From Myxococcota bacterium (lineage in GTDB: Bacteria > Myxococcota_A > Polyangia > Nannocystales > Nannocystaceae): a DNA stretch of 64,000 bases. Below, piece after piece: positions 24,001-30,000 of this stretch. A program made the position numbers. The stretch is from positions 128,001 through 192,000 of the forward strand of contig JBCCHT010000021.1 of the NCBI GenBank assembly GCA_039028615.1, read 5' to 3'. Positions within the stretch are counted from its first letter, which is position 1; every line of letters starts with the position of its first letter.

Positions 24001-27000
24001 GAGCGACTCGAATCAGTTCCCTGCGCTCAAGCGGGAGGTGGACCAGGTCCGGCCGTTCGAGAAGCTCTACGAGGACCTCCGAAGTGGGGATCTGCCGGCG
24101 TACTCGTTTCTGTGCCCCCGGTACTCGGACACCGACACGGAGTTCGCCAACTCGCAGCACGCGCCCTACGACGTGCGCTACGGCGAGCACCTCATCGCGG
24201 ACGTGTACGAGGCGGTTCGCCGTAGCCCCAAGTGGAAGAACATCCTGCTCATCGTCACCTACGACGAGCACGGCGGGTTCTATGACCACGTCTACCCGCC
24301 GCGCGATGGCGTCCACAACCCGGATGGCCTGACTTCACCGACGGCCTACGATGCCGAGCTGAACAAGTCCAACCCCGACAAGTACGGCTACCTGATGGGG
24401 GACGACTACAAGTTCACCTTCCAGCGGCTGGGATGTCGGGTTCCCGCGGTGCTCATCTCACCGTGGATCGCCAAGGGCACGGTCGACTCCACTCGCTATC
24501 AGCACACCTCGATCGCGGCCACGCTCAAGGAGGTCTACGAGCTGCCCGAGTTCCTGACGCGACGGGATGCGCAGGCCAACACGTTCACATCCGTACTCGC
24601 TCGAGCGACGGAAGCCCGCGACGACGCGCCGCTCACCGTGCCGCGGCCGCCGTTGCCGGGGCAGGGGTCGAACGAGGCCGCGCCCGCTCCCGGGACGAAG
24701 CCGCTGGGGGTGCTGCAGCGAGGGGTCTACGCGACGCTGACTCACCTGGACGGTCACCCCGACTCCGGCAAGCCACCGCGCGTGCCCAAGACCCAGGCCG
24801 AGGCATCGGCGTACATCAAGGAGCGCTACGACGCCCACAACGCATTCCACCACGCGCTCGCGAAGAACGGCCGCTTCGAGGTCTACCAGGACAAGGCCGG
24901 GGAGCATCGGTGGCGCCTGCGGGACGGCGCCGGGCAGATCATCGCGAGCTCGGGCGAGGGCATGAAGACCAAGGCCGAGGTCGACGCCGAGATCGAGACC
25001 ATCCGCAACCTGGCGCCGTCGGCCGACCGCGCAGACGTTTGAGGAGCAGTTTTCATGACCGATCAGAATCAACCTGTGACCTTCCTCGACGGCGGCGGGC
25101 TCGACATCTCGAGCCAACATGCCCAGGACCTGTCTGGAGAACGCGGCGAGCAGCGCTTGCTGGACCGCTATCGGCTGATGCAGCGCGGGCTGGTCTATCC
25201 CGCGCCCTACGCCCGTTTCGTGAGCTACTGGACGGCCGAGGGCAAGTCGATCACGCGCGCGGACATCACCGCCGTGATGAAGCAAGTGCGTGACGAAATC
25301 CACGAGCGCTTTGGCTCCACCAACACGTCGGCCATCGTCGGCGTGAATTTCGATCTGTACCGGCAGTGGTGCGAAGACGATGGCGGCAGCATCCCGGCCG
25401 GTATGAAGCTGGCGTTCCCGGAGGACGGCAGCGAGCGTTCTTCGGTGTTCGACCGCTCGCGCGGGGTCTTTCAGGACTCCGAGGCCAGCCTGTGGTTCCA
25501 CATCAAGTCGGACGAGCAGGCCAACCTCGAGGGGGTGAACGAGGTGGTGTCCAAGGCCCTCGGGGACTTGGTGGGGCGCAGCGTGTACCAGGACTGCAAC
25601 CAACGGCTGCGGCCGGGGAGCGGGGACGCGGGGCGGGTGCTCGGCAAGCGCTTCGCCGAGAACCTCAACAACCCCACCGACCCGGTGACCATCGCTCACC
25701 ACACGCTGGTGGGGCACGACGACATCGAGCACCTGGGGGCGTCCTACGCCCTCGCTCAGCGCTTCTATATCAACTGGGAGCGCATCCACCAGATGGCGGA
25801 GGAGCAGGTCGAGGACATCATCGGCCGCAACTCGAACGACGAATTCCTGCCGAACCGAGACACGCGGAGCCACATCAAGTCCGCTCGACAGCAGGACGCG
25901 CAGGGCAACACCACGTTCGTGATGCGGCTCGGGCTGCCGTTCGGAGCTTCGCCCTACGCTTCACGCCCCGACCTCGCGCTGGCCGGCAACAACCGCGGGG
26001 ACGAGGCGGGAATCTACTTCGCCGGGTTCGCCAAGCGAGTGGACGTGTTCGAGACGATCATGAGCGCACAGATCGGCGACACGCCCGGCTTCATGAACGA
26101 CCGGTTGTTCAACAACCTGCGCTCCGATCTGGGCGGGTTCTTCTACATCCCCAACCGTCGCGACCTGGGCCTCGTGCCCGAGCCGTGGGCGAAGGAGTCG
26201 GAGCGAGACTGGACGCGCTTCCCGGGCATCGACTGGTCGCGGCTGTCCCGTCACTTCACCGACAAGTCACCCAACGGGTGGATGTACTACAACCACAAGA
26301 ACTATCTGTACGAGATGGCCACGATGCCGACGGAGCGGCGGGCACAGCTGAACCCGCCCTCCACGCGCATCTTGACCTTGCTCATGGACATGTTCGCCCG
26401 CTGGCAGGACGCCTGGTACTTCGCCAAGGGCCAAGACGACATGGGGTCGCTATACGACCACATCGCCAGCGACCCCGACTTTGGCCCGGAGAAGGCCAAG
26501 GAGGTGCATGGGCTGTCCATCATGGAGCGCAAGGGCTGGGCCACGCGCATGCAGTGCCGGCTCTACGCGACGGATGCCTATGGCTATCGAGGGCGGCGGA
26601 AGGTCGATGGGGTCGATCGCCCGGGCGCCGATACCTACCGGATCCACCCCGAGGAGATCATCGTGGGGGCGCTGCCGGATCTGAGCCTGGGGCAGGGCCG
26701 CTACTGCATGAAGTACCTGCGCGAGGAGGAGCGTCAGCCGGCGTTCTTCCGCGGCCTGACCGAGGCCTCCGGCGTGGGCCACGTGCTGCCCGACCATCAG
26801 AAGCTGGTCGACCTCGGGCTCGGCAGGCTCTTGGCCGAGATCGACGCCAAGGCCGAGTCGGTGGCCGATGACGACAAGCCGTTCTACCGTGCGTGCCGTT
26901 TGTCGCTCGAGGGCGTGCAGGACCACCTCGAACGCTACGCCGCGCTCGCCGACTCGATGGCGGCCGCGTGTGCGCACGGGCAGGCGGCGGAGCGCAACAA

Positions 27001-30000
27001 CCTCGAGCAGATCGCGGCTCGCTGTCGGGCCCTACGCACCGACCAGCCATCGAGCATGGTCGAGGCGGCGCAGCTCATCTTCACCTATCACACGTGTCTG
27101 CACCTCAACGGTGAGCCGGTCTCGGTCGGGCGTCTCGACCAGTACCTCGGGCGCTTTCACGACGCGGACATCGAGGCGGGGCGCCTCACTCCCGAGGGCG
27201 CGCAGGAGATCATCGACGCGCTGTGGGTCAAGCTCTCGGAGAAGATCCTGCAGAACCGGATCTTCATTCATGACCACCAGCCCTACGGAAACCTGGCCAT
27301 GGGTGGCGGCTCGGGGCCGTACCCGCAGGGGGCGTCGCTCGGGCAGTGGATCATGCAGGTGACGGTCGGCGGCTGGGTTGCCGACGAGGAGAAGGTACCC
27401 ACGCCCGCGTACAACGAGGTCACCCGGCTGTGCATTCGCGCCTCGGGCCGCCTGCCGCTGACGGCCCCGTGTCTGTCGCTACGGGTCAATGCCCACACCC
27501 CCGCCGACCTGCTCGAGGAGGCCGCACGCGCGGTCCTCTCTGGTGGCGCGCACCCGATCCTGCTGCACGACGACAAGATCGCGGCCGGGCTCGCGCAGTC
27601 GGGCGACGGGATCGGCGAGGGCGACCCGAACAACCCGACCGCGTCTACCCCGGTCGCGGCCAAGGCCCAGGGGCGCTGGGACAGCCAGGTCAGCATCGCC
27701 AGCGCGCGTAACTTCGCCAGCGACGGCTGCTACGAGCCGCTGTTCACCGGGCAGACCTGGTTTGCGCTGGGGGGCTTTTCAACCCTCAACCCCCTGGAGT
27801 GCGCGCTCAACCAGGGCCGTTCCTACGCGTCCGCGGGGGAGACCTTCCTGCACGGGCAGAACCTCTCGTTCCATACCCCCCCGGCGGAGCAGATCGAGAG
27901 CTTCGAGCAGCTCCTGGAGCTTTACTTCACGCACTTCCGACTGCTGTGGGCCAAGACCTTCGACGGCCAGATATCCACCTTCGACGCTCTGGCCGATATC
28001 TGCCCGGCGCCGCTGCTGTCGGTGCTGACGGACGACTGCCTGGCGAAGGGACAGGACATCTACGGGGGAGGGGCACGCTACAACGTCTACGCGCCGTGCT
28101 GGATCGGGCTCAGCACCACCATCAACAGCCTGTGGAACATCAAGCGCATGGTGTTCGACGAGGACTCGATGGTCACTTCTCTGGCGGAGCTGCTCGAGTG
28201 CCTGATGTGCGACTGGGGCAACAAGATGGTCGAGCCCATGGTCAGCTCGTTGATCGGGCCCAACCGCATCGCGGCCAAGGCGGTTCGGTTCCAGCGCCTG
28301 CGGGAGATTGCCTTGTCTATGCCGCGCTACGGCGAGGGCAACCCCGAGGTGGACGAACTCGGTGATCGCATCGTGCACGAGGTCGCGAGGTTGACCGTCG
28401 ACGTGCTGCGGAACCCGGCCGAGTCCACGGCCAAGAAGATGCTGGACTTCGCCAACCGGCACGGCACGCCGGAGCAGCCCTTCGGAGGCTTCCAGATCCA
28501 CCCGGGCACGGGGACCTTCGAGAACTTCTCCGCGTTTGGTGTGGGCAGCGGGGCGTCGGCGGACGGACGGCGTCTCAACGCTCCCATCGCCAGCGACATG
28601 AGTGCGGCCCCGGCACGTTCCGATGCCCCGGCCGACCCCGCGTACGTGCCCTTCGATGCCGCTCTGGCCAGCAGCGAAGGCGATGGAGCCAGCGCGATGT
28701 GGGACGGAGCGCCCACCGACTTCAACATCGACGAGACCTTTCCCGTGCAGACCCTCGCCGACATGTTCGGTCAGTTCGCCCGCGGCAAGGGCAGCAACAT
28801 CCTGACGGTGACCGTCGCGTCGCGGGAGACCTTCACCGAGGCACCCAGCCACCCGGAGTCCTACGACCTACTCCGCGTCCGCATGGGAGGCTGGTCCGAG
28901 TACTTCACGTCGATGTTCCCCGTCAGTCAGGTCCAGCACCAGCGGCGGCCGGTCATGACTCCACCCCACGACGCCGCCGACACCAAGGAGGGATGAGGCC
29001 ATGGAACGCGCATTCGATCGAATCCTCGTGATCATGTTCGAAAACCAGTATCGCGAGTACGTGATGGCCAACCCCTATATGCGTGGGCTCGCGCGGCAGG
29101 GGATCGACATGGCCAACTTTCACGGCGTGATGCATCCGTCGCAGACCAACTACATCGCCTCGGTGTCGGGCGAGCTGTGCAACGTCACCGACGACGACTC
29201 GCCGGGCCTGCTGCCGCAGCGCACCATCGTGGACCTCATCGAGGAGGCTCCCGGTGACCTACAGTGGAAGGCGTACATGGATGGCTATCGGCCGGCCAAG
29301 ACGCCCTGGACCCCGGAGCTGGTGCCACAGGACGACTTCCCCTACGTCATCAAGCACAACCCGTTTTCATCGTACGGCAACATCGTGCGCAACGAGTTGC
29401 GGTGGAAGCGAATCGTGGACCAGACGCAGTTCTTCCGCGACGTGCTCAACGGCGAGCTGCCCCACTACGCCTGGTTTACGCCAGACATGTGGAACGACGG
29501 GCACTACACCGACGGGACCCAGAGCGAGCCGGCGGAGCGCGCCCCGGCCCTGGTCGACCAGCTGGCGCGGTGGCTCGAGGAGTTCTTCGGGGCGCTCGAC
29601 TTTCCTGGGCCCGACTCGAGGCTGCCCAAGGGCACCCTGGTCGTGGTGACCTTCGACGAGTCCGATTTCCTGAAGAAGTTCGATGCGGGCAAGAAGTACA
29701 CCTACGACGGTCCGAACCAGGTCTATACCGTGCTGCTGGGCGACATGATCGAGCCCGGCGTGCAGGACGGGGCCTACAACCACTACAACTTGCTGCGCAC
29801 GATCGAGCTGAACTTCGGGCTCGGCGACCTGGGCAAGAACGACGCGGGGGCGACTCCGCTGCGGTTTTTGTGGGGGCAGACCTTCGACTGGGAGCCGCCC
29901 GAGGATACGCCGATCCACACCCATGGCCACGTCGCGAGCGCGGGCCTGGGGGATGTGCTGCACGTGGTCGTCCGTGATGAAGACGGCGGCTTGCGGCACA

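Follow-up and report, generated by a model that had tools for sequence, protein, structure and literature searches.

All activases of glycyl radical enzymes (GREs) are radical-SAM enzymes according to a 2026 review, which describes them as specific, with cross-activation rare and tied to the sequence of the Gly loop (PMC13450708). Oxygen cleaves the chain at the glycyl radical, and the review treats the superfamily as anaerobic; the terms “peroxid,” “heme,” “fusion,” and “fused” are absent from its text (PMC13450708). Fusions of a DyP to a PFL-like domain have been described from bacteria and fungi as DyP subclass P2 (PMC5041501; PMC9719856). In the accessible portions of these two papers the DyP is assumed to be protective and the GRE to have a radical-SAM activase, no activity is reported, and a missing activase, a class V fusion, and an unfused sister family are not mentioned; H2O2 raised expression of the fungal gene 3-fold and peroxyacetic acid 18.5-fold, and a putative fungal PFL activase (CHGG_03160) was proposed (PMC5041501). 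A literature search, with most subscription journals beyond its reach, returned only these two DyP papers describing the fusion, no earlier activase-free proposal, and no report of a GRE barrel being fed by a DyP.

We analyzed a member of this subclass, P0001, encoded in a 64,000-nucleotide stretch (the window) of a Myxococcota genome (Table 1). The genome-wide survey's note had described a 1313-residue fusion of a DyP and a glycyl-radical domain that keeps the catalytic Cys and the radical Gly, and this was borne out. The open frame carries both DyP and PFL-like profile matches, in the order that defines subclass P2 (an N-terminal class P DyP and a C-terminal PFL-like domain in one chain), and Cys892, Gly1278, and Gly1279 are each present in 120 of the 120 closest homologues, as are His273, Arg291, Glu894, and Trp1280. 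A homologue search found 348 proteins of comparable length.

Table 1. The fusion gene, its parts, and its flanking genes (positions in the window; residues numbered along P0001).
Feature	Position	Strand	Basis
Upstream gene: two PLD domains, phosphoesterase, and DUF1508; true start probably later than 21431	21431..25042	+	
DyP-GRE fusion gene (P0001), 1313 aa	25055..28996	+	One open frame
Class P (B-type) DyP heme peroxidase domain, ~residues 36-375	25160..26179	+	TIGR01413 over cut-off; fold match
Glu202, at distal-Asp place of DyPs	25658..25660	+	120/120 close homologues; Asp in deeper members
His273, putative proximal heme ligand	25871..25873	+	Invariant 131/131; role by homology to DyPs
Arg291, putative distal Arg	25925..25927	+	120/120 close homologues; role by homology
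True linker, ~residues 376-430, ordered in model	26180..26344	+	Predicted models, alignments
Complete GRE fold, ~residues 431-1303	26345..28963	+	Homologue model vs propanediol dehydratase; Foldseek
W450 and W454, first GRE helix; W450 candidate entry point of an electron-hole relay	26402..26416	+	
His576, active-site His of GRE dehydratases (H166 of propanediol dehydratase, counted on printed alignment)	26780..26782	+	
Glu687, strand β-1; place (within one column) of HypD Asp278 / diol dehydratase His	27113..27115	+	
Cys loop GCYEP: catalytic Cys892, Glu894, aromatic residue in between	27725..27739	+	
F1155-E1156, lineage-specific active-site pair	28517..28522	+	120/120 unfused sisters; nearly invariant in fusions
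Gly loop RMGGW: predicted radical-site Gly1279, then Trp1280	28880..28894	+	
Downstream gene: phosphoesterase family domain and further C-terminal part	29001..30929	+	

The DyP half belongs with class P DyPs. TIGR01413 matches residues 45-369 at 105.6 bits (cut-off 100.5), and the corresponding part of a predicted homologue model resembles DtpB, TyrA, and KpDyP (Z 33-34.5 over ~292 residues). With these enzymes and YfeX the fusion shares the fold, the proximal His, and the distal Arg; it differs from them in that the remaining class P residue, the distal Asp of GXXDG, is replaced by Glu202 in the fusion's subfamily, and in that the DyP is joined to an 870-residue GRE.

The GRE half matches the PFL-like profile at E 1.8e-99, and residues 346-1174 of the homologue model superpose on residues 2-793 of propanediol dehydratase (Z 34.9, rmsd 2.8 Å, 709 residues). 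The ten-stranded barrel with its Cys and Gly loops is present in the predicted models, and the CxE catalytic Cys and C-terminal Gly motifs, GCYEP and RMGGW, are intact in 120 of 120 close homologues; Pfam Gly_radical scores weakly, at 20.6 bits against a cut-off of 22.2. Structure comparisons led to GRE dehydratases and eliminases, as the survey had reported: 1,2-propanediol dehydratase (5i2a), glycerol dehydratase (1r8w), CutC, and HypD, along with the isomerases YbiW/PflD, are alike over the whole fold (Z ~34-35) and share with the fusion the single-Cys CxE loop, the Gly loop, and a His at the H160/H166 position, HypD also having an acid on strand β-1. Unlike these enzymes, to which it is 20-25% identical and whose equivalog cut-offs it falls far below, the fusion has no adjoining activase, occurs in aerobic hosts, and carries aromatics beside both Cys and Gly, an inserted acidic loop (D740 region), and F1155-E1156. 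Models of characterized eliminases (GD/PD, CutC, HypD, HpsG) score 116-227 bits against cut-offs of 678-1100, and the substrate-binding residue set differs. We rejected a PFL function, given a single Cys in place of a Cys-Cys pair and a TIGR01255 score of 29 bits against a cut-off of 994. We also rejected the idea that W1280 is special to the fusion, as the GGW loop occurs in stand-alone relatives too.

Members of the GRE superfamily have a cognate radical-SAM activase encoded alongside, a rule from which the fusion lineage departs. None of 89 lineage loci (1.48 Mb; best score 23.6 bits) contained an activase, against 27 of 31 held-out control GRE loci at ≥100 bits, in agreement with the survey's activase-free flanking loci; by motif, activases were counted in 48 of 61 control loci (59 distinct genes). 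Nor was one found on three plasmid records and one viral record. TIGR02494 exceeded its cut-off in none of six carrier genomes and TIGR02493 in none of five; the one real activase (G582) adjoins an ordinary PFL. The source genome's best TIGR02494 score, 32 bits (E 2.6e-7) against a cut-off of 174, falls as far short as the survey had claimed. We likewise recovered the fusion as that genome's sole glycyl-radical protein: no other PFL-like gene and no second match to the glycyl-loop motif turned up (assembly 96.7% complete; search scope excluding YjjI-type PF11230). The survey's statement that the genome has no activating enzyme holds in that nothing exceeds the TIGR02494 cut-off, and needs qualifying in that two activase-related orphans are present. 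The empty lineage loci, the contrast with controls, and the lack of any gene over the cut-off in six carrier genomes support the survey's view that the general activator is something other than the cognate radical-SAM activase presumed in the literature.

The orphans permit a looser form of the view put forward in the accessible parts of PMC9719856 and PMC5041501, in which the DyP would be a shield or partner and the radical would arrive in trans from an unrecognized or moonlighting radical-SAM enzyme. Gly1279 is invariant, and candidates exist: the source genome, G000, encodes an NrdG-like protein (TIGR02491, 84 bits against a cut-off of 126) and an AmmeMemoRadiSam enzyme (TIGR04337, 627 bits), NrdG-like orphans of 92-120 bits that lack an accompanying NrdD occur in four of five carriers (G000, G219, G168, and G244), and AmmeMemoRadiSam enzymes occur in four of six. 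These proteins are relatives of activases, but neither tracks the fusion: the carrier G387 (90% complete) has neither gene, G244 has no AmmeMemoRadiSam enzyme, and in the loci examined the NrdG-like gene never adjoins the fusion. That gene is near-universal in one family where PFL-like genes are rare (86 versus 3 of 91 genomes; 84 versus 3 of 89 when the unpublished G242 and G600 are excluded), and it therefore has another job. The fusion gene is patchy and mobile, with separate searches finding it in 4 of 251, 2 of 401, 2 of 51, and 0 of 8 genomes (the 2 of 51 being the two family carriers that the survey had counted), so trans-activation would require a matching activase in each new host; activases are specific. 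We consider such activation unlikely.

One GRE lineage is paired with three unrelated DyP classes: P and V as fusions, and I encoded by its own gene next to that of the GRE. Compared pairwise by BLAST, the three show no likeness (E 0.3 or worse). The class V fusion comprises 13 clusters, its DyP part best matching 5c2i (E 1.5e-76). The unfused sister family has at least 120 clusters, and the same active-site set is retained in 120 unfused proteins; in the sole context seen for this family, on a Hymenobacter plasmid, the class I DyP gene lies 11 bases downstream. FastTree trees of the GRE lineage placed the class P fusion with the unfused family, and the class V fusion with stand-alone relatives, each in 60 of 60 bootstraps. 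Because no bootstrap (0 of 60) joined the two fusions alone, these trees indicate that the fusions are not sisters and that the class V fusion arose independently; judged from sequence, the GRE is the constant partner and the DyP is swapped. The named hosts of the fusion and unfused families we take to be mostly aerobes; Mastigamoeba and Pelomyxa, which are anaerobic amoebae, carry the fusion as well, and the named hosts of the stand-alone branches adjacent to the class V fusion look anaerobic. Any PFL-like gene at all was present in 2 of 8 and 3 of 91 genomes in separate searches. A scan of genome contigs with the one fusion protein as query found one locus. No genomic context of the stand-alone branches was recovered: their profile found no high-scoring member in 76 GRE-bearing genomes, its 30 best loci being canonical by motif; viral scans gave one partial locus or nothing, phages nothing, and a protein atlas generic GRE clusters only.

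The survey had further cited invariant linker aromatics, and here its argument is weaker than stated. The GRE fold starts near residue 430, which places W450, W454, Y455, W495, and Y509 outside the linker. In a set of 29 divergent fusions, both W450 and W454 are indeed invariant (29 of 29 each), but Y412 is kept in 26, Y455 in 24, and W495 and Y509 in 16 each. W450 marks the class P fusions and unfused sisters (114 of 120 unfused proteins, the other six having gaps; absent from other branches), W454 is not retained in most unfused sisters, and at Y893 18 of the 120 unfused proteins have Phe, as do 2 of 120 fused ones. The last linker helix (~410-425, rich in Tyr and Trp) is retained at the N-terminus of the unfused sisters. 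AlphaFold gave pTM 0.91 for residues 103-1302 of the fusion and 0.93 for a whole 1179-residue homologue (~43% identity), and the two domains are predicted to dock rigidly. Mutual information over 209 sequences (~103 effective) mainly reflected phylogeny and gaps and yielded no usable inter-domain contacts.

There are precedents for radical initiation by an oxidized cofactor in prostaglandin H synthase and in class I ribonucleotide reductase. These two and linoleate diol synthase, like prostaglandin H synthase a heme-peroxidase-initiated radical enzyme, may by analogy offer a works-like model for the fusion: a protein radical made by the oxidized cofactor travels by Tyr and Trp to the catalytic site. 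Class I ribonucleotide reductase uses a related barrel with a Cys thiyl; the heme fold of the two heme enzymes is unrelated to DyP. We suggest, at what we judge an even chance, that the fusion is a GRE-fold enzyme drawing its radical from its heme peroxidase and not from a radical-SAM activase; the heme step is what we infer. Peroxide would oxidize the DyP heme to Compound I, and the oxidizing equivalent would hop via Trp and Tyr (candidates Y412/Y417, W450, Y554, W765, Y893, and W1280) into the barrel while it stays closed, with no need for the Gly loop to flip out. Hole transfer would then yield a thiyl radical on Cys892, whether or not the radical is stored on Gly1279, and the thiyl would perform eliminase-type chemistry with His576, Glu687, Glu894, and Glu1156. 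Since oxygen cleaves a glycyl radical chain, storage on Gly would be problematic in aerobes.

Given the missing activase and the pairing of relatives with three different peroxidases, heme and peroxide may be what switches the enzyme on. The intact motifs of both halves, predicted rigid docking, a Gly loop of differing sequence (RMGGW), mostly aerobic hosts, and peroxide induction of the fungal gene also favor a heme source. Against it stand the orphan radical-SAM proteins, the anaerobic amoebae, the variability of relay candidates (Y893, W454, W495, and Y509), and the GGW loop of stand-alone relatives; the repeated DyP pairing would also make sense if the DyP had a protective or pathway role. 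The heme source is something we still infer, with an independent line of support in the sequence-based three-class pairing and the predicted docking.

DyPs generate substrate radicals, and the reaction might instead proceed in two steps with no stored protein radical, the DyP oxidizing a small substrate or mediator and passing the radical or product to the GRE barrel for Cys892 and the acids to complete the reaction. This would account for the absent activase, the aerobic hosts, the three interchangeable DyP classes, and the imperfect conservation of relay residues, yet we think it improbable: the Gly and Cys loops are both fully conserved, the docking is predicted to be rigid, and across 90 loci there are no recurring genes for a small-molecule pathway. 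That the GRE half is a non-enzymatic binding or sacrificial domain (a hole sink sparing the heme), with the DyP alone catalytic, would suit the Gly_radical score, the peroxide induction in the accessible text of PMC5041501, and an Asp-to-Glu change suggestive of altered heme chemistry, but is very unlikely given a GRE half conserved at least as well as the DyP half among close homologues, kept with an identical active-site set in the unfused proteins, and constant while the DyP is swapped.

For the heme-initiated enzyme that we favor, the neighboring genes hint at a substrate. The upstream PLD gene ends 12 bases before the fusion gene, the phosphoesterase gene begins 4 bases after it, and across loci the neighbors are often nucleases and phosphatases. 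From these we tentatively guess that the substrate comes from the breakdown of nucleic acids and is a nucleoside, a nucleotide, or a sugar phosphate. PADLOC 2.0 did not match the fusion and gave its neighbors only weak generic PLD matches (DrmC, DpdK, ZacB); no sigma-70-like promoter was found in 21000-31100. The GC content of the three genes (0.65-0.67) is near the genome value (0.68) and therefore gives no sign of recent transfer.

The fusion itself, as DyP subclass P2, is already in print; new here is that the same GRE lineage is paired with three DyP classes. A broader reading falls slightly short of an even chance in our estimate: a whole branch of GRE-type enzymes in aerobes would have dropped the radical-SAM activase and have recruited DyPs of three classes, at least twice independently, so as to be activated by heme and peroxide, and would perform thiyl-radical chemistry on nucleic-acid breakdown products, possibly within a stress or conflict module. 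If true, a one-chain, peroxide-switched enzyme would break the radical-SAM-only rule for glycyl radicals (PMC13450708); it would link GREs to the radical generation of class I ribonucleotide reductase and prostaglandin synthase, and would constitute an air-compatible GRE scaffold.

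The fusion of a DyP peroxidase to a glycyl-radical enzyme (GRE) that the genome-wide survey's note ascribed to P0001 is borne out by one open frame, by domain scores and by its homologues. Residues 45-369 score as DyP peroxidase (TIGR01413, 105.6 bits; cut-off 100.5) and residues 553-1122 as PFL-like (E 1.8e-99), with a Gly_radical match that is genuine yet below the family cut-off. Among 8000 candidates scored, 348 proteins of similar length match P0001 and both domains are present in 120/120 listed homologues, so the fusion is not an assembly artefact. The claimed invariance of H273, R291, C892 and G1278-G1279-W1280 held in all 120, as did E894 (each 120/120); the DyP distal Asp position is Glu202 in these and Asp in deeper members. 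As the survey had claimed, no second glycyl-radical candidate accompanies P0001, the only PFL-like gene of its genome, G000. The single Cys rules out PFL as the function of the GRE half. Two fusions, P0123 and P0142, have an additional C2 or C-type lectin domain.

Coordinates and spacing of the fusion gene, its immediate neighbours and an orphan radical-SAM gene
Feature	Position	Strand	Remark
DyP-GRE fusion gene P0001, 1313 aa	25055-28996	+	single open frame
PLD-phosphoesterase gene	12 bases from P0001, one flank		
Phosphoesterase gene	4 bases from P0001, other flank		
Orphan NrdG-like radical-SAM protein, ~200 aa	L178:1432-2064 (G000:C1:464572-465204)		genome without NrdD

AlphaFold models of P0001 residues 103-1302 (pTM 0.91, pLDDT 88.6) and of a whole 1179-aa homologue of ~43% identity (pTM 0.93, pLDDT 93.8) suggest that the two domains are confidently placed relative to each other, as pTM is this high with one quarter of the chain being DyP domain. 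The homologue model superposes on class P DyPs over residues 7-307 (Z 33-34.5) and, over residues 346-1174, on propanediol dehydratase 2-793 (Z 34.9, rmsd 2.8 A, 709 residues aligned), confirming the likeness to GRE dehydratases noted earlier. Because this match starts at residue 346, the GRE fold of P0001 begins near residue 430, and W450, W454, Y455, W495 and Y509, listed by the survey as invariant linker aromatics, are predicted to be part of that fold, outside the linker. Their invariance survives only for W450 and W454, constant across 29 divergent fusions; W495 and Y509 occur in 16/29. H576 is the dehydratase active-site His, and E687, an acidic residue of strand beta-1, lies at most one alignment column from HypD Asp278 (HypD residues from the available text of PMC7077986). 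The active site also holds a CxE motif and the lineage-specific D740, Q764-W765 and F1155-E1156. The Cys and the Gly each have an aromatic neighbour: next to the Cys it is Y893, at a position that is aliphatic in ordinary GREs, and next to the Gly it is W1280, where Tyr or Phe prevails in them. The Y893 position is Phe in 18/120 unfused proteins, and the GGW loop predates the fusions.

A search with the GRE half returned a branch defined by GC[WYF]E and GG[WF] (support 1.0; FastTree, 89 sequences). It holds the class P DyP fusions; an unfused sister family of at least 120 clusters (named hosts Ensifer, Ruegeria, Blastomonas, Pedobacter, Flavobacterium and Hymenobacter); a second fusion in 13 clusters, including Flavobacterium and Chryseobacterium; and stand-alone proteins of 750-940 aa (named hosts Anaerolineae, Wallbacteria and Bacillota). 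The unfused family keeps H576 in 119 and E687 in 118 of 120 proteins, and Q764, W765, C892, E894, F1155, E1156 and GGW in all. The second fusion carries a class V DyP (closest to Anabaena 5c2i, E 1.5e-76; motif Asp 12/13, His 13/13, Arg 12/13). In the single unfused context read, a Hymenobacter plasmid on which no activase was found, a separate class I DyP gene (best matches EfeB/DtpA-type, E 7e-16) lies 11 bases downstream of the GRE, and a PLD gene comes after it. Both the GRE and DyP genes are split there, as are other plasmid genes, a pattern suggestive of sequencing errors. BLAST finds no likeness between any two of the three DyP types (E 0.3 or worse). In 60 bootstraps of 35 chosen sequences, class P fusions grouped with the unfused family (60/60), class V fusions with the stand-alone proteins (60/60), and the two fusions never alone (0/60). 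As each fusion joins other GRE relatives, the sequences indicate that the GRE is the constant partner and that at least two recruitments of a DyP took place. Such repetition shows that the GRE requires a DyP; the purpose of the DyP does not follow from the pairing. Two uncharacterised stand-alone branches with GCWE and GGW (P0157-P0209 and P0172-P0212) match none of the named GRE classes tested. Eukaryotic members (P0145, P0146, P0302) comprise fusions from two amoebae, Mastigamoeba balamuthi and Pelomyxa schiedti (the Pelomyxa protein ends in a DUF2278), and an unfused member listed from a transcriptome.

G000 (96.7% complete, 66 radical-SAM matches) has no match above the TIGR02494 cut-off (top 32 bits; cut-off 174). 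A profile built from 22 activases adjoining ordinary GREs of the same phylum reached at least 100 bits in 27/31 held-out control loci, versus 0/89 loci of the P0001 lineage (88 fused, 1 unfused; 1.48 Mb; four with flanks of 1.5 kb only, some stopping at contig edges), where the top score was 23.6 bits, in line with the survey's claim on flanking loci. Radical-SAM motifs occurred in 48/61 control loci (59 distinct genes). Across G000 the profile peaked at 48 bits. Nothing passed the TIGR02494 cut-off in five further carrier genomes or the TIGR02493 cut-off in G000 and the four of these that are Myxococcota, and no activase was found on three plasmid records and one viral record. The carrier G582 has a genuine activase, adjoining an ordinary PFL. 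Ordinary unassigned GREs (L101-L162) occur in 88/401 Myxococcota genomes, mostly with an adjoining activase.

The survey's claim that G000 lacks an activase therefore stands at these cut-offs, but its two best hits are activase relatives: an AmmeMemoRadiSam enzyme (627 bits; L095, G000:C40:99339-100379), a type found in 4/6 carrier genomes, and a NrdG-like orphan (84 bits; cut-off 126), found in 4/5 carriers without NrdD. AmmeMemoRadiSam genes may underlie "putative PFL activase" labels, L095 being the best false match; further NrdG-like orphans of ~200 aa lie at L175, L176, L177, L180, L181 and L182. Either protein may moonlight as an activase, and activation in trans with a protective DyP, which better fits the fusion's presence in anaerobic amoebae, is an unlikely rival. 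Neither gene tracks the fusion, however: in one myxobacterial family 86/91 genomes have the NrdG-like gene and 3/91 any PFL-like gene (84/89 and 3/89 excluding the unpublished G242 and G600), and the carrier G387 (90% complete) has neither orphan.

Our best reading, which we hold to be an even call, is that peroxide-oxidised DyP heme supplies the radical to the GRE half. Peroxide would form Compound I in the DyP domain, and the hole would then travel by Trp/Tyr into the closed GRE barrel, yielding a Cys892 thiyl, whether or not the radical is stored on Gly1279. Both residue sets, the absent activase, the repeated DyP pairing and the predicted docking support this; the chemical steps are all ones we infer. 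Heme-made protein radicals have precedents. As oxygen cleaves glycyl radicals (PMC13450708, available text), the radical in an aerobe is more likely to be short-lived than stored. That the DyP instead hands a substrate radical to the GRE half we consider improbable, and a non-catalytic GRE half more so still.

A same-strand gene within 5 kb matched one of 13 queries (phosphoesterases, PLD, PLD3-like, DNase II, S1/P1 nuclease, non-specific endonuclease, 5'-nucleotidase, exo-endo-phosphatase, HAD and metallo-phosphatases, DUF2608, DUF2278) at 29/90 loci, or 17/47 clusters at 80% identity, a count without background control whose queries come from the same loci, so that singletons count themselves. 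One positive cluster owes its match to DUF2278 only; the carrier G219, missed by this test, has a class B acid phosphatase and a trypsin/exo-endo-phosphatase gene flanking the fusion, and nuclease/phosphatase-type neighbours are absent from the largest clusters, those of Bacteroidota-like and Acinetobacter-like loci. Because numerous unrelated phosphate-ester hydrolases adjoin the fusion, the neighbours point to nucleic-acid breakdown, and we tentatively guess at a nucleoside, nucleotide or sugar-phosphate substrate. PADLOC gave no match on the fusion. Unrelated hosts repeatedly have DUF2278 as a neighbour or a fused part of the enzyme (L132:7913-8983, L165:13986-14714, L018/L028/L029); one fusion gene is preceded by a gene for a 742-aa two-domain peroxidase, the size of a catalase-peroxidase (L046:6363-8588), and another fusion gene is on a 32.9 kb IMG/VR viral record (L164). 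The region upstream of the operon (13565-21065) encodes an 810-aa protein whose C-terminus has a zinc-peptidase-like motif, and it holds two OmpA/peptidoglycan-binding genes; Ser/Thr kinase-TPR genes, common in myxobacteria, occupy the - strand at 30991-34612 and 38021-41245, one with an ECF sigma factor.

P0001 is real and belongs to a known but unstudied group, the DyP-PFL fusions. A fungal member was described with a putative PFL activase and is induced 3-fold by H2O2 and 18.5-fold by peroxyacetic acid (PMC5041501, in the text available); the accessible part of PMC9719856 names DyP subclass P2, proposes that it protects PFL and its activase, and gives P450 as class V fusion partner. The portion of PMC13450708 at hand makes every activase a radical-SAM enzyme, calls cross-activation rare and does not mention peroxidases. 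In partial coverage of the literature (main texts without supplements) we found no activase-free proposal, class V DyP-GRE fusion or unfused family. P0001 differs from the standard GRE system because its activase was not found, and if heme activation were shown, it would be categorically new.
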